Below are positions 4,560-48,649 of a DNA stretch of 48,916 bases, in pieces. The DNA is taken from the NCBI GenBank assembly GCA_001938485.1, contig MQRK01179932.1, forward strand, positions 1 to 48,916, given 5' to 3'. Positions within the stretch are counted from its first letter, which is position 1. Each line of letters begins with the position of its first letter. Under the pieces are notes generated by a model that saw only the letters and a list, made by a program, of their open reading frames with translations, was not told the origin of the DNA and made no database searches. The position numbers and the translations under genes were made by a program. This DNA is from Girardia tigrina. Lineage: Eukaryota.

Positions 4560-5050
4560 TGTATATAAATACAAAAATGATGATTATGTAATCGATTGCA
4601 TGAAATAACGCTAATCATAAATTCTCAATAAACTGAGACAGTGTCGAAGTTGAGAGTGCCGATTGTACATTGTTTTTAGGTTAAAATTTATGCTTACACA
4701 GAATTTTGGAATTATCAATATTAAAACTACTAAGAACAAAGTGTTAAACGTGTAATAGATTTATTACTGAACATATTTTGAATTTTTTGAGATCGTGATA
4801 TAATTTTTAAATTTAATTCTTTGTTAAAACAGCTTTTAAGAATGCATTTTCAAAGTTTTTAAATTCTTCAGAATAAGGTACAATTAAACAATATTTTGGC
4901 ATATTAATATATAATGACACTTCGATTTCTTTCCTAGATCCATCCAACACTAAACTATGATTTTTCAAATGCATGGAAGTATCAAATATATTTTCAAATG
5001 GATTAATTTTATCAGTGTTAATGTTAATAATTTCCTGGCAAAAGTATATA
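4560..5050 (-). mobile_element. Decayed Penelope-like element 3' part
   Basis: Minus-strand LIVPYSEEFK...KIISRSQKIQNMFSNKS (RT-endonuclease linker-like) and FNIDNSKILCKH (GIY-YIG tail-like). A decayed HHR-like motif follows at 4507-4544. Confidence 0.45.
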
Positions 5051-6349: not shown

Positions 6350-7000
6350 ATAATTTTGTCTGAAAATGTCTATTTCAAATCTAAGTTATTCGAATCATTG
6401 TCATATTCTAATACCATTTATTTTTCAACTCCCGAAATCAGCACATTTACAAATATACAGATTGGATCTACAGCACAAAGAAATTTCAACTATTATAATT
6501 TGTGGATTAAAGTACTTCGTTCCATTAAGGTATTATATCTATACCATCATATTTGACGGTTATTTAATACTAATTCGATTTTTATTAATTAATAGTAGAT
6601 TTAATAATAAAAGAGAATAACCCATTTAAAATTTTTATCGAAAACATGGTTCGCCGTTATGCATCATAAGTTCTGAATTCTAATCAACTGCTAATAATTG
6701 TATACTCCATTAAGTCATTCATGTCATACGTTAAAAATACTTTAATATGATTGGATGAATTACTTTGCACATTTTCACTAGGTTCCAAAAACTTAATTAA
6801 CTGCTTTAGTAATATACCCCTCGTAATTATAATCAAGGTTACTGATCAAAGCGCGAAATTACTGTCATGTCCTTTCCTACAATTTCCATGATAACATAAT
6901 TGAGCTATTTTCACTCAATTAAGTCTTTTCAGCAATTCTAATACGGAGATGACTATTTGTTTCTCTGATATACAAGGATTCACACTTGTGATATTTATAT
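6350..7000 (-). mobile_element. Decayed Penelope-like RT fragment
   Basis: Minus-strand VFLTYDMNDL, HNGEPCF...MGYSL (F.FNG..Q..G..MGSPL-like), WYRY and FEIDIFRQ occur in the expected RT motif order. Confidence 0.5.
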
Positions 7001-8823
7001 TGGTAATCATGATCAGTTTTCATACCCATTGTTGTTTTGGTTTTATTAGACAAAAAGTTAAAGATTTTATTAGTTGAAAATAGTAATTTAATTTTAACTA
7101 ATGTAGCATGTTTCTCTAGTACACGTTTGAAATCTTTTGCTCCTTCTGAAAACGGAAATTTTAAAAGTAATTTCGCTGTATATTTCCCTTGCTCTTATTC
7201 TATAAAGGCGAAAAATGTTTCAAAAAAATAAAAATTAAAATTACATTATCTTTTATTATTTACAATTAATGCTGATTTTGACTATTAGGATTTGATTATC
7301 TCATTTCTCTTTTCCTTGTTATAATGATATTATTCCTTCTTTTTTATATATTTTATTGAATTTATTTTTAATTATAAAAACGTTTCTAAATCTAATGTCC
7401 AGTAATCATTTATTTTAGATTTTTTTTGATAAGATAATAATATAAGTTACATAAGATAATAATATAAATCTGGATTATGTTCTTTATGCTTAAAAAAATC
7501 ATTCGACCATATTATTTCTGGAGGACTAACAAAGCCTCTTACACCTTCAAACTACCTGATAAGAGGTTTTTACTAAATTACGTATGAAATCTTTAGAAAA
7601 TAGATGAAACGTCGACATAACGGGATTTTATAATTCCAGTAAAAAATTAGTTGAACAAAATTAACTGTAATATTATGGCAAAGGTGCATAAGATTTGAAG
7701 ATATGTATTTTATACATAAGTTTTTTTCAGATTACTTTTTAAGATTGTGTTTTTCTTTTAAGGATATTAATAATAATTAGAAATTTTCATAATGTTATTA
7801 TTATTATTATTCTTTGTTTAAGATAATTAAATTAAATAATTAATTTTAGATATTATTTAATTAATTAAAATTTTATTTATTTATAACAATCTATAAATGT
7901 AAAAAATACGCAAAATAAAATATATTTAATAAGATAAATTAAATCATACATATTTCAAATATATTTAAAATAAATAAAATTAAATATTTTCTCTTAATAA
8001 AATGTTTTTCGTGAAATAATTTTCCATTAATCGAAAAATAATTTTTTGCGCAGTTTTTTTTCATTCTGACTTCTTTTGTAGAGAACCGTTTGAATTCTCA
8101 GTATAATTATTATTTCAATATAAACATAAAGGGATAATCATTATAATTGGAATTTTTATTCTACTTAAATATTAATGAGTTTCGATTTCTAAACTGTTTC
8201 AAATATCTTTTTCTTACTAATAGAAAACCATTTCTTTTATTTTCAATATTTTGGTAGGAAAAACGGAATTATTTTATTAAATTTGATACTATTTATTTAG
8301 TAAAAATCAAATACAATCGTAAAGCTTCTTTTGAAGAAAAAAACGAACAGAATCATTTATAATTTATTATTTAAGATGTTGATAATTTTATTTTTTTGAT
8401 ACTTTTCTGAATAAAATTTTTTAAGAATAAATAATTTTTAGGTAAAACATTTCAAAAATAGACTTTTGGAACATTTGTGTTAAAACCATTTACTGTAAAA
8501 TTAAAAAAAATTTGAATTCAATAAAGTCATAATTAGCTCAAATGTTTGGTTGCCTTAATGATAACTAATAAATATATAACAAAATATATTATGGTCGATG
8601 AAAGATAAAACTGGATGCAAACCATAACTGTGAAGCTTAAGAGAATTTGAGGTCTTGCAAAGGAAATGTTATTTTTTTGAAAAGATATAATAATTTTTGA
8701 TTTTCATATTTTTTAAGTAATTCTTATATAATTTAAATTAAAACTTTTATGTAATTTCTTTTTTTATTTCAATAATTTATAATTATATTATAACAAATAA
8801 TAATTAAATAATTTCTTTGATGA

Positions 8824-8967
8824 CATGATTATTGAAATATTATATTAGCGTTTATTCATTTAAATATTATCATTTTAAAGGAAAATAATTTGTTTAATCT
8901 TATGCTAATGTCTAGAAAAGAACAAAAAACAGTTACAAAAGAAATATATGATTTAATTATTTCGATG

Positions 8968-9015
<48 letters not shown>

Positions 9016-10166
9016 NNNNNNNNNNNNNNNNNNNNNNNNNNNNNNNNNNNNNNNNNNNNNNNNNNTATATATATATATATATATATCTGAAATTTTGAAC
9101 TTAGGTAGAAACACAGTTCGAAAACACTTCCTAAATCAGGAAACAAGTTGCGAATTTAAGATTCATTTAGATAAACGCATCGAAACTTACCGATTACGCA
9201 ACCCAACACTGTCGGATGTCGAACACTTTTTAACTTAATTTCCTGCAATAATATTCAAATTCAAAAAAGCTAATAATATTCATGAATTAAATTCAGTGCA
9301 ACTTTCCCTATCAACAGAAAACTAGCAAGTATGAAAATTATTCAAAAAAGATTATCATGGGTACCGATTGAGAGAAACACACCGGAAAAAATTAATGCTA
9401 GAGCTATTTCTACAATGGAGCTTTCGAGATTTTCCGATGAAAATCTTGTTTTTCTTGATGAAACGGCGATTTAACGCACACACACAGCGAACAGTTATTC
9501 CATCGAAAATACTAAAGCCTATATCAGTTTGCCGATCAATAAAGGAGTAAATCGCAGTTTGATGTGCACCAATTTTATTATTTTAGAAATATATCAATGA
9601 CGCTTGTAATTCAGAATTGAATTTTTAAGCCAAGGACTTGGCGACTATTTAAATCGTATTCCAAGTAAAATTATTATCATGGAGAATGCGACGTTTCACA
9701 AATCAAATAGCGTGAAACAATATTTAACATCGCGAAATATCTCTTACAAAATTTTGGTTCGTTTTTATCCGGAACTAAATCCAATAGAGGAATTTTTTGC
9801 AATGATAAAAGCTAGGTACAACTCGCAGAAAAATGCACCACCACATTGCACAATCGAGGAAATTTTAGATGCAACTAATCGGTTGTCAATGACGTTTAAC
9901 TACAGTTCCAAGGTTTTTATAGAAACATGAGGAATTGACTGGAGAAAGCAAGAATGAGAGAACCGTTTATATAAAAAAAATTATTCAAAATGAACGCTTT
10001 TTAATATTTTAATGTATTTACCTTTTTTAATAATTCTTTTTCTATGTTATTTAAATAAATATATATGTTTTGTACATTTCTACTTATATTTTAAAATGCT
10101 TGTATTAAATTGAATAAACGCTAATATTAAAATCAATAAACGCTAATATATAATTGAATAACCCTG
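8824..10166 (+). mobile_element. IS630/Tc1-type DDE transposon, defective
   Basis: VFLDET (~9447-9465) and IIMENATFHKS...FYPELNPIEEFFAMIK (9673-9810). The right end aataaacgctaatatataattgaataaccctg|TA matches a degenerate inverted left end catgattattgaaatattatattagcgtttatt at 8824. Confidence 0.8.
8970..9087. repeat. (AT)n microsatellite spanning an N gap, inside the Tc1-type element
   Basis: Direct observation. Confidence 0.95.
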
Positions 10167-11182
10167 TAAATTAAAAAAAATAATGACAATATAAATTTTA
10201 TAATTATTTTTTATAACAAAAAAATATTCATCCTTAAACAAGAAAAACTTTTAATTAAAATATTAAAAAATGGAAATAATAAGAAAAAATATTTTTTATT
10301 CTATTAACAATTTTTTAAATCAATTTTCTATTTTATTATTTTAGTAAAATTTTCGAAAAATGAATATTCTTTAAAAATAATATAATTAATTTATATTAAT
10401 ATTTATCTAAATTATTATAAAATATTCTTAGAATTATTTTCTTTAATTTATTTATTCTTTGTCGAAATGTGATAAATCGACAAACAAACTCGATGTCTAG
10501 ATGAAAAAAGATAAATTTATGCGATTATTCGATTATTTATTTATAACGAGATATCAAATAAATAAAATTATAAAATGTTTTTCTGTAACAAAATACAAGT
10601 GTTTTATATTAGTTATATAAAAATTTGCTAGTAGAACTTATAGTTTTTTTATGTTAAAGTTTTATAAAAAACATTTTGAAGAATAGATTAATAATAATTA
10701 ATTATTTTAATAACAATATGTTATTGTATAAATTATCTATCCAACATCAATTATCATTTATGATTATTAATATATAAATTATTATTATAAAGTTATCTTA
10801 TATATAAAGTAGAAAGTTTGTCTACTTTTTTGTCTCTCTGATAACAAGGCGTCTTTATACCACGTTGCCTAAATGTTCTCCTCGTCAAGAAGAACATCAA
10901 CAGCTACTTTCTTTTAAACAAAAATTAATGTACCACCGAAGAAAAATATGATTTCTTCATACTTTTTAAATTTTGAATAAAACAGAATAAATCAAAATGG
11001 AGATTATTGGAAAAAACTAAAGTGAATTTACATTTTATTTAGCAATTTAAATGCAATTTTAATTATTCAAAAAATTAGGCTGTTCGATCAACTGATTACA
11101 ATTTAAATTAAAATGAACAAAACTATTGAAAATTATGCCTAGAAAAATTGTCTCAGTGTATCTGGAATAAAAACATATTTAA

Positions 11183-13556: not shown

Positions 13557-15391
13557 AATGATTTTTCAAACGAAATTTACTTATATAGTGCAGTTAATGA
13601 TTATGCAATCAATATGTAATAAGTATATCATTTAAAAACTCTCAACAAAGTTGTAGAGAGTGCAGTTTGAACGTTAATTTTAGGATCCAAAGATCTTATA
13701 TATAACGCTTCACATGTCACTCTCTCCCAATAGAGTATATATATATATATATATATATAAAATTTATTTATATATAGAATTTCCTATTTATATTTATATA
13801 TAGAAGAAAATTTAAATTAGAATTTACATTTTTCCATTTCTTATAACTTTATGAATTTTTGGTATTTTTTCTTTATAAAAATATTTTTGGACTTCTTACT
13901 AATTATTGTTTATTTGTTATGACATTGTGATGAAAAATGTATAAAAAAATTTACTTACTGCACTCGGGTTAGCAAACGCTCTCCAATTATTTTTCCCATA
14001 AAAACCAAATTTTCATGGTTTCTGACTCGGAAACTGCGTTCTGGAGTCCTGGTTATTCGAATCAGTGATTGTCGTAGTACTAATCAGTCAAATATCTACG
14101 ACTGGGACCTAATAGTACCTTGATCAAATAGATAATAGTAGAAAACTGTTGGAACATACGAAAAAACATACCAAAATATTCACCTTAATGTTGCTACTTC
14201 AACCGGCTCGATTAGACAATTCGTACAAGTGTTGGACCCGAAATCTCGACTTCGAATGAATTAAATTGTTGAAAAGTTCGATCTATTCAGTTTCAGACTT
14301 CAGAAATCGGTACAATTCCATCGATGATGAAACTTCATTTAAAATGGGACTCTGGTCAGCAAAACACCCGCAGAACTCTTTACAAGTAAAATCTTCATCG
14401 ATCTTTGTGATCTCCATAGTTTTCTACCCCAGAATCAATGACATTGTAAACGTTCTTTTTAGAAAGAATTTAATATTTACTTGTTTTTCATTATCTCGCG
14501 AAGCCTCTATAAATCTCTACTATTTCTTCATTTTCACTGAGTTAACTTGTTGTATTAATAACATATTTATTCGTCTTATTATATATATATATTTATTTTG
14601 CAGAATAAATGTTATTTACTAACATTCTAACGATTTTGTATCTTGTATTTAAATAATTATAATTTGTATAATTAGCTTTAACTGTGAATAAAATATAATT
14701 ATTTATACCAAAAAACTGAACTTAAAATTATGCTGATTGGAGAAAATTAAAAGTTTTAACAGAGAGCTTTTACATTTATTGAATTTTCATTTTAATAATC
14801 GTCCTCAAAAGAATATGGCCGGTATTTTCAAAACCATTTAATAACGAATTTGACTTTCAAGCAATTCAGTGAAAAAGACATTAAAGTCTCTAAAATCAGA
14901 ACAACAAAAGTATTAGAAAGAAGCCACCAGACATAATTGTTACATTTTGACAATTGTCGAAACAATCCTCAAATAATCAATGAAAAGAGTATTTGAATGT
15001 CGGCATTAAAAATAAAAAAGAAATTAAAAAAATTCAAAATCTCAAATGTATGATAATAATTTAGAATGAAAATTCATTCTTATGAAATATTGAAATTTTC
15101 CTTAATTTTCTTTTTAAAAATATTAAATATGACTTTATTTTTTGGTTTGTTTATTTTTTTCTAAAAAATGATTTCTTCAATAGAAGATTGTTTTTATTCT
15201 TCGATATCATTCTTCAAACGACCTTCTGAAAGTCAAAGTTAATTTTTATTTTTTATTAATCATTAACTTAATTTGTTATTCTTATTTAATATAAAAAATT
15301 TATAAGAAACCCAAAATCGATTTACTTTTTATATTATTAAATAAAAGATATATTATATCAATTTAACTTTCATTTTTTCAATGGTTTAATG

Positions 15392-22960: not shown

Positions 22961-23337
22961 TATATTATTCTGCATATTTGCATATGTCTTTAAAGTAAAC
23001 CTCTTAACATAGTAACAATATTTTCAACTCACTAGTCTATAAACTTTGAAGAACATTATGATGTAGTTTNNNNNNNNNNNNNNNNNNNNNNNNNNNNNNN
23101 NNNNNNNNNNNNNNNNNNNTAAGAGTAGCTTCTGCCATGTCTACCAGCAAAAATAAAATTATGTAATTATAACACACAAAAAGATATGGTGTCTATATTA
23201 CGTGTTCTCAAATAGCTGCCGCACCCTGTATATTATTCTGCATATTTGCGTATGTCTTTAAAGTAAACCTCTTAACATAATAACAATATTTTCAACTCAC
23301 TAGTCGATAAACTTTGAAGAACATTATGATGTAGTTT
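22961..23337. repeat. 109-bp duplication (22961-23069 vs 23229-23337) flanking an N gap
   Basis: The copies differ at 3 positions. The second copy is preceded by a Tc1-like end (gcaccctg|TA). Confidence 0.85.
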
Positions 23338-25239
23338 AAAACCTTTAGGAGCCAAATACTTTCTAAATATGACCCATTCCATTTAGGATTTTTTGTTATT
23401 GTCTATGATGATGAATAATTCGAAGATTGTTATTCAATTAAAACTAACCGCCACAACTGAATACCGTAATAATGGGAAATGCATTTTTATTTTGTACAAC
23501 ATACAGTACAATATACGTTTTTAATAAGTAAATAAAGTTGTAATAAATGTCTCGTACGTGTACCAGTATTTTGTGACCGATGGAAATACAATCTTTTTTC
23601 TTGGAAAGAACGCAATGAAGATCAACATCGACCAATAGATGATTTTTTTATTCGACTTTAACAGTCGCAGAAGCGATAAGCCAACCGTGCACAAATATAT
23701 TGAGAGGGTGGCACGAAACGTCAATAGTTTATTTGGTTTCTTATATAATATCACTCTTATCCTATTGCTCTCAGAGACCCCTTGAAAAATGACTTTTAAA
23801 CCTACTGTTTGTTATTTAGATGAAACTTAAATTTTAAAGTAAAAAGTTAAAATGAATTTAGTTAATTTTAAGAAATGAAATCCATTATGAAAGTATCAGC
23901 TGTTTTAGTTCCATTTTGAGTCTATTGTTTGTTACGCTCGATTTATATGGAAGTGGACAATAGATGACAATATAATTTATATCAGATGTAAGGTCAAAGT
24001 CTCATAGAAAACGTTAAGTCTCTATTGGTTCACTATATGGCTGCCTTAATTAGACTATCCTACAAGTGTATATTTTTAATGGTAATTATACAATCTTTTA
24101 TATCCTCAATATACTGCAAGTTCTGCATCACAGGAAAAGTTGGCTGAACATGTAATCCTTCTTCACCTATTGTTGTCTCTGGGTATATTTTCTCAGTGTC
24201 TTTTGTTCTATAACAACGGAACTATTTCTAGATGATGGAGTTTATTGTGATGGGATAGGATGAAGTTTCATCTCGAAAACTAACTTCCGTGATAGTGATA
24301 TTACACTGTTTCCATCATGGTTGTAAGTGATAAATTATCTATTCCTACGGACGAACTGATCAAAGTACGAACAAACTTAGAATCCTTTAAATAAGTGGAT
24401 ATTTAATTATCGGGCATTTATCAATTTGAAAGGATAAGTAAAGACAAAAGTTATAAATTTTAAAAAAGTTAAAGAAATGTATTGTTTTTTAGGTCCAGGA
24501 GGACGAGACTAAAAGCATTTAGATAACGGATTTAGAGGTTAATACTCTTTAAAGATGAAATCGAAATAGCACTTTAGATATTATAACAATCATATATATT
24601 AAGATATTTAACAATGATTCCTGAGTTTTTATAGGGTAAATTATTTTAATTATTAATTGTTTGATTAAATTTATATTATTACAATATAACAAATCTGAAT
24701 TAAAAAAAGAAAAGTTGTATTTTTATTTTATCCCATAATTAGATAAACTTCAACCAAATGGTTCTTAATTTAATAACCTTTAGAAACAATCAAATGTTGA
24801 TAATGAATAATAAATCATTAAGTAAAATTGTAAAATATTAATTAATTAATTAAAACTGAAAATATTTTATGAATTTTGCTTGGAATAGAAATCGATTTTT
24901 ACCTTTATTTTCCTTTAGCTAATTTAGCATGTTTCTGTGATTGAAATTAATAAAATAAATAAATAAACTTTTGTCAAGAAAATCTGGTGACGGAAAATTC
25001 ATTAAAGCAACTGTGTTTTTCTTTATACCCAAGAAACAAAACAACCCAAAAATACCCAAGAAAAACAACAAAATTGATATCCGGGATTTTATAAATTATT
25101 ACTTGTAGAATTTAATATATTATTAAGGTCGATTTATAAAAAGATGTTCATCTCAATAGCTCGTACATGTATAATATAAGTAAGAAAGACAAATAAAGTC
25201 ATTTCAATTTTTAATTTTTATTCGAAAATATGCATCACC

Positions 25240-25780
25240 ATTTTTAAAAATTTCAATTATTTTTCAAATAAATCCAAAACATAATTGACTATGAAAGCAA
25301 ATTTAATTTACCAATATAAATGTGACAAATGTGAATCCTTGTACATTGCATAGACAAATAGTCAGCTCCGTATTAAAATTGCAGAACATAAATAATCAAT
25401 CAGGAAAAGCTAAATTTTGAATAACATTGTGAGATGTCCTGGAACTCACTGGAAGGTACCATGATATTGATTTTCAGGTTTTGATTAGTAACTTTGGTCA
25501 CAATTATGAAAGGACAATTACTGAAGCATTGTTATTAAAGTTTTATAAATCTGGTTTTACGTGCAAATTGATTCGTCCTATCGTGCTAAATTATTTGAAT
25601 GTAACGCGTTGTGACGTAATGGTCATCTTAATATATAAATAATTTCATTTTACTTATTTAAAAAACTGATGATGCCGCAAAAGTGGCGAAACATGTTTTT
25701 GAATAAAATTTTAAAATTGAAATGTCTTTATTTTTTTCTTTATTAACTAATTTACCATTTACTACTCAACCATTAATGTA
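25240..25780 (+). mobile_element. Penelope-like element 3' end (GIY-YIG endonuclease remnant plus pLTR with HHR)
   Basis: From 25291: MKANLIYQYKCDKCESLYIA*TNSQLRIKIAEHK, then FQVLISNFGHNYERTITEALLLK. An HHR follows. Confidence 0.85.
25660..25705 (+). ncRNA. Minimal type-I hammerhead ribozyme (PLE-type)
   Basis: AAA CTGATGA T GCCGC aaaa GTGGC GAA ACATGT T TTT, lying ~60-100 bp after the GIY-YIG remnant. Confidence 0.75.
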
Positions 25781-28700: not shown

Positions 28701-30791
28701 CGATTCTCGGAATTGGATTAAAAATATTAATTTAAAAACTTTATAATTTATCTTATGTCTTTTATAAAATATTTTTATTATAAAATAATAAAAAATAATA
28801 TAATATTGATATAAATAGTAATATTAATAATAATAATTACAAACACTTTATTATTATTTCATCATAATTTATGACATCACGATACATGTTTACGTCTCAA
28901 TTTTATTTCGAAATGAAGGTCTAGGAATGATTGTTTTATGATATTCACTTTGTTTACGACTAAGTTCGTAAAAGGTAAAAAATCTTAGTCACATTTTACG
29001 AAATTAATATTTCATAATGGGTGAAGATTTAAATATTTTAAGTATCTAAATATTTTTAAATGTATTTTAAAATATCTTTTTCCTTTAAACAAATAGTAAT
29101 TTATTAAAATAAAAATATTTTTAATATTTTTTTTAAAAAATTCAAATCATTTTTTATTATTTTTATTTTTTTTAATTTATAATGAAATATTAATTTGTAT
29201 TAATTATTTTATTAACAATTAAAATTTTTTTCAGTTATTTTAAATTTAATATTGTTTATTATGTCAAGATATTTTCATTTCTTTGAATAATAAATAAAAA
29301 ATTATTATTTATTTGTTTTATTACAGTATATGTTATCATTTAGAAAAATGGTTTTCTAATTTTACTTTGTTAATAAACAAAATGATAATTTTTTAATTAA
29401 TTTTGGCCTATTTTTATCATAAAAGAGGATATGAAACCACATTTTGTATGGATTAAATTCATAAATTAATTCTTAATTGCAGAAAATAGAAAACTATTCT
29501 TCCATCTCAGATTTCAGAGTTTGATCGAATCGAATTTCTGGGTTTTTAATTAATTTAAATATTAAAAGAAACAAAACAACCATATAGATCCTGGTCAAGT
29601 TTTTATAAGCTGGTTTCTATTATTTTAAAAAATGATTTTAAATTTCAATTAATTTATAAAATAATTATTGTAATTAATTATATTACTTCTCATTAAAATT
29701 GAAATAAATTACAAACGGTGCGGAACAACAGTAAACAAATTGTCACAGTTCAATCTAAATTAAAAGAAACAAAATAATTCCCTTAAACTATTGATTATAT
29801 TAATATTTTTTAATCCGTTCTTTTTATTATAAATAATTCTTTTGGTAAATAGTTATACAAAAATGTCATTATAAATGTTGCCTGGTGGTCTCCTTCGAAC
29901 ACATTTGGACCAGTTCAAATATGCCAGTTAGGATAAATTATCAGTGAATTTAGGAAATATAAAGTTAATCCTTTACATTTTGGTTTTTATTATAAAAATA
30001 ATAAATATATATAATCTATTTCTTAATAAAGCAATAATTGCAATGCACTGGTTATTCCTTTAAAGGCAACATCAATATAATTTATATAAACAAAGATTTT
30101 TTAATACACGTAATTGATTGTCACCTTGTGCATTTCTAAAATTAAAGTAATTTTTCATCAAACTATCAATATGATTAATTATAATTAAGAAAATATAACT
30201 ACGAATCAATGTACACGGAATTCAGAATTATATAAAATAAACGTATTATGTTGAGTGGAAATTAATTTGCAAAGAATCATACTTTTTTAAGATTTTACTA
30301 TCACAGAACTTGACTTGTTGTAGAAAAGGGTGTAAACTTCATTAAAAAGCTCATTATACAGATTAATAAAAGAAATATTCGAAATACCCTTTATTAAATA
30401 TAACCATATCTCGATGTCTTTGCCAAACGTCCTTAAAAGTAAAACCAGGTCTGGTCTGAGAACCATTGAGCCAAACCGCATATTCACTAAAGCTTTCTCC
30501 TTTTGAATGGTATTTTCTTCCATCGATGACATAAATTCACTCTGAACAGCACTTTGAAAATTTTTTGCTTAGAAGTAAAATTTTGGTCTCTGTATGATTT
30601 CCCTCAAGGTAAAAAAAATCTTACATAAAGTAATATTTCCAAATTATTTTAGAGGGATAAATGTGTAGCTTCAAGAGAAATCTTAATTGTGCTTTAATGA
30701 AACTAATATTTGTTAAATATAATATTGAGTTTTGTGAACGCAAGTTTAATATTTTGAAAATATAATTTGATTAAAGCTTTTTTTATATAAT

Positions 30792-30835
30792 TATTGGACA
30801 AGTTTCGATGCTTACATACATCATCATCAGCAATA
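30792..30835 (-). ncRNA. Minimal type-I hammerhead ribozyme (left arm of foldback)
   Basis: Minus strand: TATTG CTGATGA T GATG tatgtaag CATC GAA ACTTGT C CAATA. Perfect 5-bp stem I, 4-bp stem II and a GUC cleavage triplet. The stem III palindrome has one change. Confidence 0.8.
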
Positions 30836-31209
30836 TTTGAAGATTTAGTATTTTAATATTTGTATAGTTCAATATTTTAATTGTTCTTAATAATATGATT
30901 TTAAAAGGTATATTAAGTTTAAATGGAATAATTTAAAAAATATATTATAATTTATTAAAGTATTATTAATTATTAATTTTTAATAATAACATTACTCGAT
31001 CGACTCATTTGCGAGTGCTCACTAATCCGGGTTTTGAGATGACGATTTGTCTCTCCGATGTACGAGTTTAATAATAATTTAATAATACTTCAATAAATTA
31101 TAATATATTTTTTAAATTATTCCATTTAAACTTATACTTTTTAAAATCATATTATTAAGAGCAATTAAAATATTGAACTATACAAATATTAAAATACTAA
31201 ATTTCCAAA

Positions 31210-31253
31210 TATTACTGATGATGATGTATGTAATCATTGAAACATGTCCAATA
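31210..31253 (+). ncRNA. Minimal type-I hammerhead ribozyme (right arm of foldback)
   Basis: TATTA CTGATGA T GATG tatgtaat CATT GAA ACATGT C CAATA. Intact core and palindrome with a GUC triplet, but an A:C mismatch at the base of stem I. Confidence 0.75.
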
Positions 31254-32001
31254 ATTTTATAAAAAAGCTTTAATCAAATTATATTTTCTATATATATATA
31301 ACTTATTAGAATTGAATTAATCACATATAGATTATTAAGAGGTTTCTTACGTTTTATCAGTATTATTAAAAACTTATAGTAAATTTAGAAGAAACTCATT
31401 CTCAAGATAAAACAATATTTAGGCGCGAGAGAATTTTTAAAATGATTTACATAAATTTTTAATATTTCCTTTTTAAGTAAACGCTGATCATCATTGTTTA
31501 ATTTAAATGTAAATAATTAATTTTTCTAGACTTATACTATTATTTTCAATTTTCGGAACGAATAGGAAAAAAATGACAAGAAAATAGGAAAAACTTCAAA
31601 CTTTGTTGTATAAAATGTTATTGAAAGAAATTACAAGTAAAAATTAAAAACTTCATATCAAAATAGATTATATAAATGATTTATTGTTTCAATTCAAAAA
31701 CTTATCGAATTGTATAACATTATATTTCTTTATTCTTCTGAGGAATTATAAAATTCCTCTGGATATTTTCTGTGATATTTAATTTTTACCGTTTAGGGAA
31801 TCAAACAAAAAAACTAAATTAATTGAAAATTTAACATATATCAGGAGCTTGATCTGATCGGGAATAAATATAGATCACTGATCCTCAAATGTATTAGAAA
31901 ACTTCAAACTTTAATAATTTTTTAAAAGCATTGCTTTTGGGCATTAAATTTGATCGAGATATATTAGAAATTGATCTTATATATTACTTTCCTAATTAAT
32001 G

Positions 32002-32099: not shown

Positions 32100-33790
32100 T
32101 TTCTGGATAAGAAAAACTTAATAATTTTAAGATTGATAAAGGAACTTAACAAAAAGTTTAGAAATCAACTATTAATAAGAAAAGTTTCAGAACACCAAAT
32201 TCTTTAGCAATTTAATTCGATTAGAATGGTAGGTTTGGATCTAAAATATTATTACTGTTAAGCAATGCCTGATGTTTATCATTATCATCAAATTATAGAA
32301 CGTTACTAATTGCTAACACTTAAGAATATAAATATTGCCATTATAATTTCAATTATAAACATTTAATAAAGTGGTTGCAAATTAGATTGAAAATTGATGT
32401 TCTAAGGTTACTGGGCTCTATAAATTATGATTCAAATGATACTCTTTTAATTATTTCACCGCGCAGAACATTTAGATTAGAATATGAAGGAACCACGAAA
32501 ACCAACCAATTCGAAATTTTATTCTGGTAAGTTAACCTGAAGAACATATTAAAAAAAAAGAAACCAATATGAAAAGAGTAATTTTCACATTCTCAATTTT
32601 AGACATGAATATCATGAATTTCACAAACATGAATTTTTAGACGTTGCAAAAATTAAAAAAAATTGATTAACTAAACCGTCTAACAGTAACACATTTAGGC
32701 CGGATGTCATCAATATAATCTACATGGCATTTATACTCTAGAGGTTTCTTGTCCGGAAACAAATGGAATTTTTCTTCAATATTTCTATCAAGTATAAACG
32801 CTAGCATAAAAACGCTATGTTGATAACATTTTTTCTTTTAAATCATAGGAATATAGATCATTTTTTAAGATTCTTAATTTCTCGGTACCAAGTATTAAAT
32901 TTACAACAGAAACAGAGAATAATAATAAATTATCTTTTTTAGATTTACTAATAGAAAAGAAAAGAAATAATTATGACACCAAGATTCACAGAAAGAAAAC
33001 TGATAAAGGGTTGTATACATTTATAGTATGATTATAGGGTTAACTTATCGACCTTAGTCATTAGCATTAACTTTTTCAAAATTTTTTTGGTTATATTAAT
33101 CGATTTACAAAATTATTGAATACAATGGTTACTAAAAATCAATTATTGAATAATTGACTAAAGAAACAATCGATAAATTAATCAATAAATGATATAAAAG
33201 AACCACCTATTTTAAAATACGTTTTGAGTATTTCAAATTTTCAAGGTTTTGGTTAATTTACACGTTCAATTTCGAAATTTGTAAATACTATTTTTAATTT
33301 ACAAATAAGATTGCAACATTCAAAATCCAAAATGTATTTTATAAAAAATCTCCTACCCACTGTAGTATTGTTTTTGGATCTTGTTTATCGATTTACATGA
33401 AATTCAACATATATTCGAGAGACATCTGATCATCTATTTAGCAGATTCAAAGAACATGCCGTAATGTTGGTGAAGTACTATCACAGAACACATAAAAGTT
33501 TTGGAATTGAATGAAAATATTAGCATAAATAATTTTAAAATTCTGGTTGCTCAGTTTAATAATTATTGGGAGAGAGTGACCTGTAAAGTACTATGTATCA
33601 GATCTTTAGATTACAAGATTAATGTGCAAACGGGTCTCTCGACAACCTAATTGAGTGTATTTAGATGATTCATTGGCTACATAATCACTGCTTGCCTACA
33701 TAAGCAAATTTAAAATTCATAATTTCTTTATGGCCTGTCAATGACAGTTATACTGTTGAAATTAATAGTCTGTAATAATATTTTTTATTT
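32100..33790 (+). mobile_element. Longest Penelope-like element remnant (RT + GIY-YIG + decayed HHR)
   Basis: Motifs in order: KIDKG (~32130); KRYVDNIF (~32810-32833, YVDD site); PSIKFTTETENNNKLSFLDLLIEKKRNNYDTKIHRKKTDKGLY (32888-33016); LVYRFT*NSTYIRETSDHLFSRFKEH (~33380-33457); NFKILVAQFNNYWERVTCKVLCIR. HHR relic at 33732-33770. Confidence 0.85.
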
Positions 33791-35759
33791 TAATGGCATC
33801 TTATTGTTTTCAAAAAAATGCCATTATTTTTTAATTATTTGAATAATTAATATTTTATTATATTATTAATGTTACTGAGATGCATATAACGATTACACAT
33901 CATCTGATATTTTATGGTAGTTCCTCTGAATATGAGATTTATGAGTTTAAAAATAATATTTTAAAAGCTAAAAAGGCATAATTACATATAATGAATATTT
34001 CAGTGAGTAAAATCGATGAAATATTGACCAGTTACTGTTACTTCTATAAATTTTGTTAGAATATTATTTAGGAATATAGATGAAATGACTGCGAGGCTAC
34101 AGACTCATTATACATAAGCGAGTCTAAGAATATAATAAAAATATTGTAAGCCATTTAGTTACAATTTATTAATTGATGTATTTTAATTTATTTGATTAAA
34201 TAAATTAGTAAAGAATTACCTTATTTATAAATAGGTTATTAGACATTTTCAAGGATATAAAATTAATGTTTGTTTTGTCAAAATTAGTTATCTTTAAATA
34301 AATTTTAAAAGAACTTTCAAATTTTCATTTTTATATTTTAACATTTTTTTAAAATATTAATATTTATTTACTTTTATTCTTAAAATTAAGTACACCAGGA
34401 AATAATTTATTAAATCTCTTATAACATAATTATCTTACTATAAATGGAAAGAGAACAATTAACTTAAATTATTAATTTTATTTTTCTTTTTATATAAAGA
34501 ATTTGTAAAATAATCAGTAAAATTGGAAGTCAAATAAATAAATCAAAAAATTGAGAGATTTGGGGATATTTTATTGGAGTTAAAGTTTTATGATAATAAT
34601 AATTACCAATTACAATAACGAATTTAGATAAATTAAAATCTTTGATATGGAAACTTTGGATGATATCTAATGTTCCTAAAGAGGGTTGACTACATTTAAA
34701 AATCGGGAAAAAAATTATATTAAAAAATACCAACCCTATTTGGTTAAAGGAATTTCTGAATGCGCTGCTGAATTAATTACACAATGATTATATAATCATT
34801 ATAATCTGTCAAGTACTTCATTATGATTGGGTGAATCACTTTGCGCATTCAAACAAATTTTCTAAAATAATCGTACCTATATTTTATTTAATTAATTTCA
34901 TACTTCCATTTTAAACAAATTCTTCAATTTCTTCCTTTTTGAAGTATCGTTAATAAATACACAATTAAAAAACATTTTTTTCGATAATTGAATCAAGTAA
35001 CATTTTTATTATCAAATGCAATCGGATTTGTTTATCTTCGTCTTGTTTGTTTATACTTTGACAGCACTGTTAAAATCCAAATGCCAAATATCAACTTTAA
35101 ATGAAAGTGTCAATTTTGTTGTTTGAAACAGAAAAATGTCAGTATAAAAGTATTTAAAAGCATTTCAATAAATATCATTCAATGCTTTAATAACAACAGT
35201 CAATGTTTTTTTATTTTTCTTGAAATTTTTTACAAGAAATTTTGATATAATTTTAAATGGATTCAGTTGAAAGAACTTCAAAGGTATTTTAGAAATGGTA
35301 TATAAAATATAAATGTCATTTAATAGCAATTAATTTTTCAATTTTCTAATTAAACATATTCGATTAATCAGAAATTTTATCGCAATTTCAATATTTAGAC
35401 AAATTATAAAATAAAAAGAATTAATTTCAAATTTTAGAATGAATTAATAAATAAATGATTTATTTTTTGATTATTTTTTCAATATTAAATAATTTAAAAC
35501 ATTTTATTAAAAATAGTGTTTTAAATTTCATGCTAAAAAGGTCAAAGCTAAATTATTAATTAAATAAAATAATATTAAAGTGAAAAAAGAATATAGTATT
35601 AGAAAAATTGATATTCATAAATGAAATAAATTCGTTCAGAGGAACAATGATAGAGAGTAACGTTAGGCTATGTAAGATAAAATCCATCATGACGAGACCA
35701 AGAGGAAAGGTAATGGGGAAGCATGTTGAGATTGTAAAGAAACATAATTTATAAGAATA

Positions 35760-36110
35760 TCGATCATTTCAGAATTGTCCTTGACATCTAAAATGAGACT
35801 TCCTTATAGTTTAATTAAAATACCATCTACAGAAGAAAAGCTTGTTTTGTTTACAAATTGTGACTGGTGTCCAAACTCGTACGATGGAGAGAACAAATGC
35901 CATTTCAAAACAAGAATTAGTGAACATTCACATTCTAGTAGATTGAATAAGATTGTAGATCACTGAGTCAATTTCGAAAGACGACTTTTCTATTCTTCAA
36001 ACGACTTTTGATTATAATTATGATAGGTTGTATTATGAATCATTAATACTTAGTCATATATTATCCGAAAATAAGGAATTTTAATCAGCCTCAAGATTAA
36101 ATATTTTTAA
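35760..36110 (+). mobile_element. Penelope-like GIY-YIG endonuclease remnant
   Basis: ORF 35775-35966 contains CDWCPNSYDGENKCHFKTRISEHSHSSR, clearly related to the foldback core at 30988-31068. Confidence 0.7.
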
Positions 36111-37909
36111 TTATTTTTTTATTTATTATTTTTATCATCAAATAAAATCAAATTAAAGTGTAATTTTGTATTTCCCTATTTACTCGAATTTTAATGCTCG
36201 TTCAAATTTTGTGGTTCAAATCTGCTCAGAAAAGGTTTGCATATTTATTTATTAGTCTTGGATCCTAGGGACTTGTAATACTCAATTTCTACCGTTGTGA
36301 TCATCTTAAAGTGGCTTTTATTAAGAATTTTATGTTATTTATCGCATTTTATTCCATCTTTTTATGTTAAGACTTATTAGAATAATTATGATAAAAAAGT
36401 TTTTTCTAAGTACTGTTGTTTGAACAACAATATTTTGATCTTAGATTTTTTCTTTTAAAGATTTTTTATCCGTTGAAAGTAAATAATATTAAGACTTTCT
36501 AAGATATTATCATATAAAATTATTATTTTTTCCAAAATTTTCAGTAAAAATAGTTTAAATGTTTCTGAAAATTTTAAACATATAAAACCATATTTTGATT
36601 ATATATATATAATTATATTAACTTTGAAAATTGTCTAAATTGGTTTTAATTTAACAATATTTGTATCGAAATTCATTAAAATAACATATTAAAAACATTA
36701 TTTACCTCAAAAATTCAAGGAATAATTCTATTTTTTGTTTTTTTCTATTTAATTATCAAAGGTTTTTTATAAAACTGTTGTATTAATTGTTTCCAAGCGA
36801 CGAATAATAATCATAATATTCATATTCATAATAGTCGTAAATAGTATTTCTTATACGAATTATTTTCTTTCATTTGTTAAATTTTTGAAAAAAAATATTT
36901 CAAAAAATAAAATATATTCACTTTTCTAATTTTAACTCAAATATACTCAGTATAAAATCTCATCAAGATTTTAATAATCTCATTATTTATTTATTTATTT
37001 TAATTTAACGAAAATTGATATTTTAAAGGGAAATTAACAAAAAAAAAATCTTTATAAATATTTTAAAGTTTTTTAAAAAAAATGGTTTTATTGATAAAAT
37101 AATTTCTAAAATATGAGTTAATTTTTATAATATAAATTAATAATTAATATATTAATTAATAATTAATATTTATGTTTTGTTTGAATATTTTTAAGTTTAA
37201 TATTTCAAAGAAACATTTTAATATTTTTTTCAGTTTGTTTTGTTTATTTTAAGAGTTTTAATATTTATAAATATATAATATGATCTTTGATATTTAGTTA
37301 ACTTTTGAATACAATCTGCTTGAGAAAGTATTTGAAATTTATAATTTTTGTTAATAAAATCTGTCTATTTTGTCTATCTGCTTGTCTGAATGTTCGCGTA
37401 GAAAATAGACTCATCTTTGTTATTAACGAAGAATATTACTGTTATTTGTATATAAAGTTAGAATACAAATAGGCTATAGAAAAACGAAAGAAGTAAATTA
37501 AAATGCCTCGGTGTTAATGAAAACTAAAATGGCTTCTTTAATAAAACAAAGGGACCCAATTAAATACCTATTTTCATGCTTACTCATGTTTGGGATAAGG
37601 TTTCGAAAGCCAACTTGTAACTTATCAGATATATTTTTTATCTAATCCTAAATATGTTTGATATAAAATTAAATAAATGATTAGATTAATATGACTAACG
37701 TAATGTACTTTCAACCTTTTTTATCTAACAAGATACGTTATTCATACATTCTCTTTAATCATTTTACTAATGTTTAATGCTGTTCGGAGAAACCTTTGCG
37801 TTGGTAATGACATCGAATTATTAATTTATTTTTATTTTTAAAGTACTTTTATCATTGTATTTATGTAAAATGTATTCGTAAAATAAATTAATTGTTTCAT
37901 GTTTTCCAG

Positions 37910-38490
37910 ACGAGAGTCGTTACAAGATTCTCAACCAAAACTCAGCAGCTATGGATAAGCTTATTCCAAGATATCTAAGGAGTGCATCCGTAGATATGAA
38001 TGGATCTTTGCATTTATCAATGCCAAATAGTGAAGTGATTAATCCCACACCGACAACCACCACAATGAGCTATACTTATGACTCTAATTTTCAAAACTAC
38101 AATAATAGATTTAAACAAATAAATATGTCTGGTAGTCAAATGAGATCTCCAGAAAAGTTTTCGAAACTCAACAAACTTATTAAATCTGGAGAACTGGTTG
38201 ATTTTTCACCAGATGACGAAAGCCAGAAACGAGGCTTTTTGAATGGAGACCCAATTCAATCTTTGGATTCAATCAAACGAGTCGTTAAATCTCCTATTAT
38301 GTTCCAAACTGTAGAGGAAAATGTCGGAGACACTCACCAAACAGAGTCCGATTCACTTCATGCGAAATTCGGAAACACCAGCGTCCTAGACATTGTGTCT
38401 GGATCCTCGACCAACACGTCTTTGAACGATATGAAAAACAACAATGCCACCAGTAATCAGACAAACGACCGGATGTGTAGCCAAGTGTAA
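37910..38490 (+). CDS. Terminal host coding exon; disordered S/T/N-rich tail ending RMCSQV (class I PDZ-binding-type motif)
   Basis: gttttccag acceptor at 37908-37909, phase 1. The frame is stop-free for ~193 codons with elevated GC (ORF track 37951-38490) and shows no TE motifs. Confidence 0.8.
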
Positions 38491-42640: not shown

Positions 42641-43005
42641 AATATGATCTGTTGTTGCTTGAATAAGTACAAAGAAAATAAATGCTTGTAGAATTGGGGT
42701 TGGCTTTGATATTGTTATTTTAAGGATTTGAGATTATGTCTTGAGCTCCAAATCACAGGAAGTCAAGATTAGTATTCTTAAAATAATTCTTAATATTGAT
42801 TTTTAATTTGAATTTCCATTAGTAATATTAATTTGTTAATGGAATTTTTTTAATTTTAAATTTTATTTCGCGTGTCCTTAAAATAAACAAGAATAGATGA
42901 AATGAACGTGAAAAAAAATAAAAAGTAGAAATGAAGTGACGACAAAATTTAATTAGATTACGGGCACTACATTATTTAAAAAAAAACAAAAAACTAAAAT
43001 CATTA

Positions 43006-43334
43006 CCGGGATTTTCTGAAAATAAGCGCATTCAAAAATAGGCACATGCTCCTATTTTTGGGGACAAAAACCTGATTTTTTGCTTCCATTTGAATTGATC
43101 AAAAAATTATTGTAGTGGTTTCAACCTCTATGAAAACCACAACAATTATTTTTTAATTAATTCAACTATTACGAATTTTTAGCTGTTTTTAGCACTTTTA
43201 CACTTGCTGCACGTGAGGTAAAAATGGCAGTTTCCTAAAATAAGCACTTGCGCCTATTTTTGGGAACAAAGTGGAACACATAAAAACATAAAAACTAAAT
43301 ACAAGCTCATGCGCTTATTTACGGAAAATCCCGG
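43006..43334. mobile_element. Tc1/mariner-pogo type MITE, 329 bp
   Basis: TA|CCGGGATTTTCTGAAAATAAGCGCAT...ATGCGCTTATTTACGGAAAATCCCGG|TA: ~26-bp TIRs and a TA TSD. It has an internal hairpin (~43090-43165) and subterminal repeats. Confidence 0.85.
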
Positions 43335-44145
43335 TAACTATTAAAAAATTAAAAAAAACTGTGCATAAAAAATTGTATATAAAGATTTTATTTAAACAGA
43401 GTAAATGAACAGAGTAAATTGAACAAAGACTGTAAACCAAACTTGTTGTTCTTCAATAAAAAAATCTTAAAACACTCGATTTCTTTTTTTTGATTTAGAT
43501 AAATTTCATCCATCTTTTCATTACCGAAGCAAAGCAGTCGACTTTTGATCAAAAAAAATCGACTATCATGTCGGTTACAATTACGCCCGAAACGGATCAG
43601 GTTAAACGCTTACGCCTATTACTTGATTCACTCCACCAGTCATGTGTTGGCATCAATACATACTTTTTATAAAACAAGTCAGATAAATTTGTAAGACAAT
43701 GACATTCCACTATACATTTGTCATAACAATAAATAATTTTTCAGTAACTATAATTAACATTTTTGATCCATCTAAGTGTGCACTATGGAGTGCATCTCTT
43801 GAACTATCCCTTTAGTTGTTTTTAATTTTCTTGTGTTGAAGCAGTGACATTTTAACTTTAGATTCTTTTGTATACTAATACTTTATTTGTAGTTTTGATT
43901 AGCAAACATCAAAAATTTTAATATTTAAATATTAAACATCGAAAACCGCATACATTTTACATAAGATAAAAAATTATATTTAGATAGACATCAAGAAATC
44001 CACTCAACAAAACATAAAGAAGAGGGTAATGGAAAATAAGCAAGTCACGGTATTGCAAAATCATCTTTTATTGTTCTTATTTTCATTAGTAATATATTTA
44101 AACTGAAATATGTCCCATTGACGTTTGGTTTAGACGTCGGTCTAC

Positions 44146-44753
44146 ATAGTGGTTGGACAAAGATGAAGTACCGAAACACTTTCCAAAACCGAAACTAACA
44201 CCCCGTAAGGTTATGGTGACAGTTTGGTGGTGTGATGCTGGAATCATCCACTATAGTTTCTTGANNNNAGGTGAAACAATCACAGCGGAGAGGTACTGTC
44301 ATGAAATTGATGAAATGCATAAGAAATTGAAAACCCTTTGTCCGGGATTGGTCAATCGAAAAAGTCACATCCTTCTTCATGATAACGCCAGACCTCATAT
44401 TTCAAAAGTGACTCTTCAAAAGCTTAATGAGTTGGGCTATGAAACCCTGCCTTATCCACCATATTCACCAGACCTCTCGCCAACGGACTTCTACTTTTTC
44501 AGGCATTTGTACAACTTCCTATGTGAAAAAATTTTCAAAAACCAAAATGATGCTCAAAATGCCTTCCAGGAATTCGTCGTTTCGAGAACCGATGCATTTT
44601 ATGCTGATGGAATAAAACAACTTGCTTCTCGTTGGCAAAAAAATGTATTGATGCCAACGGTTCATACTTTGATTAATAAACTTTTGTTTCTGTGAATTTG
44701 CATGTCTTTGAAGTTTGTGTCCCAAAACCGCCATTATTTTTCGACCAACCTAA
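44146..44753 (+). mobile_element. mariner transposase 3' half with right TIR (cecropia/Hsmar1-like), 5'-truncated
   Basis: KVMVTVWW...LLHDNARPH...PPYSPDLSPTDFYFF. A +1 frameshift in the A run at ~44637-44643 precedes CIDANGSYFD*. The TIR is aaaaccgccattatttttcgaccaacctaa|TA. Confidence 0.95.
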
Positions 44754-46240: not shown

Positions 46241-46762
46241 GATGATTATGTAATCTATTTCTTGTCGGAAACTCTTAACAAACTAGAAGACACTCGTCAT
46301 ATATGATGGGTGAACTGAATTTTCGTCTTTGAAAGTTTTTACTTTAATTTTTAAATCGTAATTATTATAATTTATTGTATAATGTTTCGAATTCTGTATT
46401 GATTTAACAGTCAGTCAATTAAGTTGGCTCCCGGAGCCTTTCGGCGAAGGCGCCGTACAGACAGAACCGTCGTGATGCGGGCTATGCAGATTGACCTCAA
46501 CTTTACGGGATTCACTCCCTGTTCCTCCACTATTTCGCATTAATAAGGGTCACTAGACCTTATTAACAAAGCTTCACACGGCTCTTTCCCAAAAATTTTT
46601 AAAATGCCTGGAATGAATTTTAAAAGCATTTATACTCAAATCACATTTCCAAGTTTTCCTATGCTCAACAATATTACTCTTACCCCTCTATAAGTGTATT
46701 CTTGGAGTCCTTTACAGAGATGACGGTCAGTCTCTCCAATGTAATCAAAAAGCTAACGATCA

Positions 46763-47349: not shown

Positions 47350-47409
47350 TTACTGAGTCTTGTGAACGCAAGTTTAGTATTTCGAAAATATAATTTGATT
47401 AAAGCTTTG

Positions 47410-48578
47410 AATCCAACCCTTCTTTAAACTGCTAGACCAACCCGAGCCCACGGTAACTCTGGGTGTAGGCACACAACACCGCCGCCAACCGATCACCGTA
47501 TCGCTTATAGACCCGAGCTCCCCAGAAGTTTTCTTTATCGAAGCCACCACCTTCACCACCAAACACCCGAAAATAAACTTTCTCGTAGACTCTGGTTCTG
47601 CAGTATCACTCCTACCACTCTCTTTCCGACCAGATCAGAATTCTCACAATCTTGACGTCCCCAGAGCAGCAAATGGATCCCTGATTCGAACAGCAGGATC
47701 CACAATACTGTATTTTACTCTGCCATCTTTCGAGCAATCTTTTACTTGGACATTTATAATGACAGAAGTCGAATTCCCAATTTTAGGAGCCGATTTTTTC
47801 ACGCATTTCGGCATCCTCATTGACTGCCAAAACAAACAATTACAGAACACCACACCAAAAAACAAAACTCACAAGCACACAGCACCTATACTAAAAACGA
47901 CAATAGTACAGAATTTGGCAAACAACCGTTATTCTAACTTAATAACAAATACATCAAAACATATACATTTTGCCGATGAATTTAACAAACAAGTAAACCA
48001 ACCTAAACATGAAATTACAACAAATAGAAACACAAAAACATGCAAACAAGCACAACACACAACTAACAGCCAACCACAACAAACACTTCCCAACACTACC
48101 GACCACGAAAACATAAAACCATACACGGCAGCACTACCACTAGAACTTATCGACTGCATTAACACTACCTGCAAGAACACAATCACGAAATCAAAGACAG
48201 TCATTTCCAAGTATAACTCGCAACACAACATAATCACCACATGTCACCCTATCAAACAAAAACTACGACCGATACCGCCAGACATACATATTATAGACTG
48301 CTCAACTCTGCCATAGTTCCGATAGCTACCCACTCCCACTAATAACCGATATCTTTCACCGAATTACCGCGTCAACCATTTTTTCAACGATCGACCTTCA
48401 CAAAGCGTACCATCAAGTACCAGTAAACCCGACAGATATCTCTAAAACAGTCTTCACGACACCTTTTGGCCTTTTTGAATACATCCGGATGCCTTTTGGC
48501 CTGCACAACTTCGCACAAACCTTTCAGCGGTACATAGACGAAATTCTCACCGACTTCACTTTCGCGCACCCTTATATC
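47410..48578 (+). mobile_element. Ty3/gypsy pol fragment (aspartic protease + N-terminal RT), truncated
   Basis: Open frame 47423-48316 with FLVDSGSAVSLLP...RAANGS...PILGADFF. It is followed by FSTIDLHKAYHQVPV...KTVFTTPFGLFEYIRMPFGLHNFAQTFQRYIDEIL...PYI, cut just before the YxDD aspartates. Confidence 0.93.
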
Positions 48579-48649
48579 AGCAGTAGTAAATTAGTGCGTT
48601 TACCCCAAGATGCCAGGGGTCTGTGGTATAATTTAATAAATTAAATAAA

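Follow-up and report, generated by a model that had tools for sequence, protein, structure and literature searches.

A hairpin-shaped fold-back of two Penelope-like element ends around an endonuclease scrap in Girardia tigrina

A contig of Girardia tigrina contains two tail ends, placed head to head, that belong to a Penelope-like element (PLE) and flank a scrap of its endonuclease gene, forming a hairpin-shaped fold-back of 563 bases. Very probably, this unit is the remnant of one truncated insertion into (TA)n by an endonuclease-bearing PLE, in which two 3′ ends of the element enclose an 82-nt scrap, and it has been inert since. The observed parts of this explanation are how the unit is built, its tail on one side, the way the family carries on normally beyond the ends of the endonuclease stub, and the private hammerhead lesions. 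Judged by its sequence, the unit appears to be a fragment of an EN+ PLE and not autonomous. All coordinates refer to the window, the whole stretch of 48,916 nucleotides that was analyzed.

Anatomy of the unit

The left arm is a sense pseudo-LTR, or 3′ end, of 220 nt (30756–30975, minus strand), and the right arm is an inverted, tail-less copy of 217 nt (31072–31288, plus strand). Aligned from 30755, the arms match in 206 of 222 columns, differ in 10 and have gaps in 6, which bears out the original prediction of two inverted arms of ~215 bp. The arms are unequal, since the left one carries an extra outer tail of ~30 nt (30726–30755, minus strand) that constitutes the 3′ end of the element and is missing from the right arm. 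This tail recurs in a second, 55-nt copy of the family's tailed 3′ end (47354–47408, minus strand), which lies beside a (TA)n gap and abuts a Gypsy-like relic (47411–48644, protease/RT). The tail and arm end on the 30726 side match this copy at 52 of 55 positions.

Both arms stop at a common inner point and have a linker of ~8 nt in common. A 19-nt micro-palindrome with an 8-bp stem and a 3-nt loop occupies the inner end of the left arm (30969–30987), and an 11-nt direct repeat surrounds the stub (30979–30989 and 31067–31077, both on the plus strand), its left and right copies overlapping the stub ends by 2 and 3 nt, respectively. For a palindrome like this one, which was chosen post hoc, the probability by chance per 25 nt is ~0.016 across the window and rises to 0.059 in its most AT-rich bins. 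For the repeat, whose windows were likewise picked post hoc, the observed length was reached in 75 of 5000 shuffles and in none of 506 real arm-window pairs. In DNA this rich in A and T, neither the palindrome nor the repeat is more than modestly unlikely. The tail-less end abuts a short (TA)n run (31289–31299), the likely target site, and neither arm-stub junction has a second copy within the window.

A short spacer between long inverted arms could also suggest a MITE or Foldback DNA transposon that ended in long terminal inverted repeats and had picked up a piece of a PLE. This reading is hardly credible and is largely refuted by the unit itself: the arms bear PLE-type hammerheads, the ends are unequal by the tail, and the flanks contain no target-site duplication (the longest common flank word is 6 nt of AT). 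In addition, most of the family's sequencing depth falls on the stub and on the arm ends separately.

The endonuclease stub and its family

Between the arms lies a GIY-YIG endonuclease stub of 82 nt (30988–31069, minus strand) whose 27 codons (30988–31068) lack a start codon; the upstream codons and ~60 downstream codons are gone. It is identical at 25 of 27 positions to residues 132–158 of P0002, a 219-aa metagenome protein that came from an exhaustive search with seven matches at E ≤ 0.001. The Pfam GIY-YIG profile scored the stub at 19.9 bits (E 0.00089), under its cut-off of 22.6. P0002 extends ~60 residues past the stub and has a cysteine pair immediately before the matching part. Both zinc-finger cysteines and the second histidine fall outside the stub and are present in P0002 and in the loose ends of the family described below. 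The spacer had been described as an endonuclease core. Its 27 codons and their resemblance to P0002 support that description for part of the core only, because the first half of the GIY-YIG motif, both zinc-finger cysteines and the C-terminal catalytic region are missing. The stub encodes no working enzyme.

The match to P0002 and the PLE-type, hammerhead-bearing pseudo-LTR arms support the Penelope origin proposed earlier. The unit combines three features of EN+ PLEs, namely a PLE-type GIY-YIG domain, pseudo-LTRs with a hammerhead motif and a one-end tail of the 30–40-nt class. No reverse transcriptase (RT) occurs within the unit, and one is present in the relatives P0007 and P0013–P0022. Full-length relatives of 757–818 aa (31 matches, 10 inspected) have an RT followed by a C-terminal GIY-YIG domain with CCHH; they are 33–42% identical to P0002 and are not the parent. 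By inspection, the CX2-5CxxC zinc-finger linker is missing from P0002, P0007 and the 10 inspected relatives, among which P0018 had been missed by the motif search. By the definition in the cited section of PMC8557442, CCHH without a linker suggests the Penelope/Poseidon type, a clade with a C-terminal EN that P0002 and its relatives resemble in both respects, even though the true parent is not among them. Membership of the Hydra clade was ruled out by the presence of CCHH. Targeting of (TA)n is described mainly for linker-bearing clades, whereas the unit's family targets (TA)n though its relatives lack the linker to which the guidance of such targeting is attributed.

Searches of viral and prokaryote genome contigs gave no locus for P0002 and no match, in either set, for the tail pattern. 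A scan of metagenomes for the 19-nt motif returned 18 loci, none of which had an arm or endonuclease match. At two of the 18 (L002 and L010), the motif continues into a loose hammerhead-like second box.

A search of sequencing runs listed 24 runs, of which 20 share part of the stretch and two share half or more; no RNA run is listed as a holder, which says nothing about expression. We compared contig sets from four of these (X1, X2, X3 and X5, the RNA label of X5 being a guess), which contributed 14,182, 12,498, 1,377 and 775 records, respectively, on the 1.2 kb around the unit. In X1 and X2, contig depth summed over the stub and over the arm ends reached 1–7 million, compared with 62.5 and 42.8 on the left flank; these values do not translate into a copy number. 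X3 and X5 cover the repeated parts of the element and not the flanks, and so represent the family rather than the locus. The PLE family of the unit is very abundant.

Among the 24 groups of loose contig ends listed of 1,152, those at 31069 comprise 233, 231, 50 and 35 contigs and those at 30988 comprise 150, 128, 21 and 23 (X1, X2, X3 and X5). Inspected by eye, these listed ends continue as endonuclease in the manner of P0002, with VYKFNCHGC before the stub and LDHWLYCKNR after it. Loose ends at 30717–30722 and 31300, from the same 24, enter (TA)n and mark two recurrent family termini, one tailed and one tail-less; 65 X2 contigs continue into (TA)n at 31300. Among the 15 joints listed of 38, seven connect endonuclease to arm at breakpoints other than those of the window, each with at most one contig per run and a depth of 37–173; three of the seven have a short side below 30 letters. 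One further endonuclease-arm joint has 21 letters between the parts. From these varied joints, many similar fold-backs are likely to exist in the genome. The window's own junctions match the reference and are never listed as joints, so the joint table cannot count them.

Family letters at arm positions were taken from X1 only (18 of the 40 variant positions listed, of 96 in total). At 30835, 30935, 30936 and 30938, the same minority letter occurs in both arms, as it would if they came from a single template or a single subfamily. A summed X1 depth of ~6,400 with the window's letter at 30935 hints that this arm subtype is itself repeated.

These data bear on the idea of a non-autonomous mini-PLE family, in which the arm-stub-arm unit (or a deleted stub-plus-arm master) is copied in trans by an intact PLE and recurs with the same junctions at many loci. 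We consider it unlikely. It would account for the common inner end of the arms with their linker and for a depth of arm-subtype letters well above that of the flank. It also has precedents in the cited portions of the literature: in a rotifer, pLTRs alone suffice for mobilization in trans (PMC3846280), and non-autonomous PLE derivatives are known (PMC8557442; 10.64898/2026.07.22.740005). However, every loose end listed at either boundary of the stub reads on into endonuclease, the other listed joints are single-contig with varied breakpoints, and the window offers no second copy of either junction. The arms also differ by 10 substitutions, three of which harm the ribozymes, and a perfect 220-bp stem would presumably be a poor template for RT. 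A bolder version, to which we assign a similarly small probability, envisages a self-complementary, MITE-like Penelope family: a fixed unit whose tail is its only unpaired handle, spread in trans to numerous (TA)n sites, with each copy acting as dsRNA against the family's end and, via the loop, against the endonuclease message. Among the titles listed by searches of an open-access library, we found no non-autonomous fold-back PLE family and no retro-mobilized hairpin parasite.

The contigs also address the concern that repeat reads were mis-joined into a palindrome, which we judge very improbable. Contigs break at repeats, and no piece among the 32 listed of 28,982 spans the unit or bridges its junctions; coverage of the right flank is thin in both X1 and X2, which leaves the assembly as the source for the right junction, and the assembly is gapped at TA runs. 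Against an artefact, the 10 substitutions and several indels between the arms exclude a mirror copy, and the tail asymmetry known from published elements is present. Moreover, the first X1 record (4,913 nt) connects the left flank with the tail (30400–30749).

Hammerhead motifs and the predicted hairpin

Hammerheads were called by inspection of motif and helices against the published minimal motif (PMC4209133). A motif scan of both strands found four hammerhead-like cores in the window, two of them inside the arms. The arm cores begin at 30830 (minus strand) and 31215 (plus strand), 385 nt apart and facing outward. The two outward-facing hammerheads that had been predicted are recovered as motifs by inspection; Rfam is silent: the window gave no match at the gathering score, and no hammerhead model appeared among six weak matches up to E 10.

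In both arm motifs the core boxes are intact, stem I spans 5 bp, A9 is followed by an additional U and loop III consists of two bases; in each copy one or two helix features fail. The left minimal type I motif (30792–30835, minus strand) retains an intact 5-bp stem I, the bulged U after A9 and G10.1–C11.1, with its loop III palindrome broken at 30801. The right one (31210–31253, plus strand) keeps the palindromic loop III and has a stem I mismatch at 31214 and a G-U at 10.1–11.1 (31238). The two lesions initially noted, in loop III and in stem I, are both real and differ between the copies, but the G-U in place of the conserved G10.1–C11.1 pair had not been listed. At 30801, the other letter makes up 99% of the summed X1 depth and is also found in the right arm; at 31214 and 31238, it makes up 91% at each position and is found in the left arm. 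Since each altered letter is a minority letter in the family and is opposed by the majority letter in the partner arm, we interpret these lesions as decay.

The motifs agree with the minimal type I hammerheads of metazoan PLEs, as the cited parts of Cervera and De la Pena (2014, PMC4209133) present them, in their stem I of 4–5 bp, G10.1–C11.1, the extra base between positions 9 and 10.1 and the palindromic loop III. They differ in the private lesions of both copies, and stem II is 4–5 bp in the unit compared with the 7–8 bp reported for S. mansoni. The same source describes dual minimal hammerheads on opposite strands, ~100–700 bp apart, a spacing that includes the 385 nt of the unit, and ascribes them to truncated PLEs. 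It also reports that minimal motifs of this class were inactive as monomers. Non-LTR retrozymes (10.64898/2026.07.22.740005, in the part cited) are likewise short, non-coding, hammerhead-bearing PLE derivatives, but they are arranged head-to-tail with ribozymes on the same strand. The unit is head-to-head and inverted with one motif per strand, which sets it apart from a non-LTR retrozyme.

The two cores outside the arms, at 25666 (plus strand) and 21345 (minus strand), belong to another family and have a bulged U and a palindromic loop III, but a GUU triplet. The first lies just behind an endonuclease relic, and the second ends at (TA)n.

The unit is predicted to fold into one long stem of −260.6 kcal/mol (z −33.3; none of 100 shuffles was as stable). 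The initial proposal that a transcript would form a long hairpin carrying a ribozyme holds for the stem; the ribozyme, in contrast, is predicted to be fully paired within the stem of a read-through RNA and not displayed. On either strand, such an RNA is predicted to have its antisense arm transcribed first and its ribozyme buried, and release from the stem would cost roughly 55–62 kcal/mol by a crude constraint estimate. The ribozymes would be both stem-masked and without a same-strand partner.

A stem of this stability could be seen as a co-opted hairpin locus, in which read-through transcription yields a stem of ~220 bp that is Diced to siRNAs, silences the PLE family and is kept by the host. 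We regard such co-option as quite improbable. In transgenic D. melanogaster, siRNAs match inverted regions of rearranged Penelope (PMC3681739, PMC3136932), but according to the cited part of the former they did not silence Penelope efficiently. At the locus itself there is no sign of selection and the arm mismatches are uncompensated; with many similar fold-backs likely in the genome, the locus would also not be special. The searches for a host gene around the unit identified none, a result that speaks neither for nor against read-through transcription. Any siRNA arising incidentally from a transcribed locus would suit a single truncated insertion too, and siRNA from inverted Penelope copies, already published for Drosophila in those two papers as cited, would not be new here.

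Origin of the unit and its genomic setting

The fallback in the original prediction, a one-off truncated insertion, fits the evidence best: the layout matches published insertion units, and the listed loose ends continue as endonuclease. In the cited portions of the literature, PLE insertions often come with an inverted, 5′-truncated copy next to them and bear a tail on one side (PMC8557442, PMC8969392), with a tail of 30–40 bp in such units (PMC8557442). For the rotifer studied by Arkhipova et al. (2013, PMC3846280), inverted pLTRs of 181–218 bp and a 31-bp tail are described; palindromes occur where pLTRs have their 5′ ends and at inverted junctions, which were read as self-priming, and there are internal microhomology deletions and copies lacking a TSD. 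As had been stated, inverted pLTRs are known for Penelope and are in print. The further suggestion of an undescribed system is not supported, because every part of the layout is covered in the cited sections of PMC3846280, PMC8557442 and PMC4209133.

Set beside the EN+ PLE insertion units of PMC3846280 and Craig et al. (2021, PMC8557442), as far as the cited sections describe them, the unit shares inverted pLTRs of ~200 nt, a ~30-nt tail on one arm, a palindrome at the pLTR 5′ end, a microhomology-associated internal deletion, 5′ truncation and the lack of a clear TSD. It differs in its extreme reduction to 82 nt of ORF and in a deletion that ends where the inverted arm starts.

The following sequence of events could have produced the unit. 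The element's protein may have nicked AT-rich DNA, with reverse transcription proceeding from the tailed start. Synthesis would then have stalled in an AT-rich tract at the 5′ boundary of the pseudo-LTR and snapped back on the 19-nt palindrome. Jumps at microhomologies of 2–3 nt could have carried it to the endonuclease region, where 82 nt were copied, and the inverted, tail-less arm may finally have been synthesized on that same template, with self-priming or a second priming as its start. According to the cited part of PMC11167929, a PLE protein introduces nicks into both strands of AT-rich DNA, the tail corresponds to the distance between two internal RT start sites, and ribozyme cleavage was unnecessary in vitro. 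Stalling at the palindromic pLTR boundary together with short-homology jumps would explain why both arms end at one point.

If the fold-back copy had at first been longer and had lost sequence later by a microhomology deletion, the outcome would look just like that of this route. Another variant of the one-off reading would have the stub inserted only once the palindrome was complete, duplicating 11 nt. Both copies of the repeat overlap the stub's own ends, however, so that microhomology already explains part of it. For the common inner stop of the arms and the 11-nt repeat around the stub, a single truncated insertion needs the assumption of a template switch or of a fixed boundary.

By inference from the rest of the window, the surroundings are a repeat-rich eukaryotic genome. 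G+C content is 19–33% per 2 kb, assembly gaps occur at TA runs, and the repeats include mariner, Gypsy-like elements and many PLE relics. Seven further decayed PLE protein relics lie within the 49 kb (4751–4881, 6735–7173, 13634–13777, 25225–25549, 32813–33641, 35714–36057 and 46693–46752); they represent several families, and one has a remnant of the RT catalytic motif. Tc1/mariner-type DDE relics were found at 8787–10204, flanked by a 76%-identical inverted repeat, and at 44150–44695, and a MITE-like 29-nt inverted repeat (93%) with its copies ~300 nt apart spans 43003–43337. A G+C-richer patch 160 nt from the unit (30390–30565) contains two overlapping open minus-strand frames and is possibly a host exon; neither Pfam nor the protein search, PDB or Atlas gave a match for it. 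An open frame of 202 codons (37882–38490) likewise yielded no homologues when these were sought. Near-identical local direct duplications at 49–299 and 397–647 (98%) and at 22961–23069 and 23229–23337 (97%) are perhaps assembly or tandem duplicates.

On the favoured reading, the unit is a fresh example of a published PLE by-product. Its import is slight, as one more decayed PLE fold-back among many PLE relics. It may nevertheless serve as a fossil of an unresolved step in PLE integration, since the palindrome, the 11-nt repeat and the microhomologies of 2–3 nt found at the turn are consistent with a snap-back and a switch of template. If its junctions proved to be multi-copy, the unit would instead be a retro-mobilized hairpin parasite.
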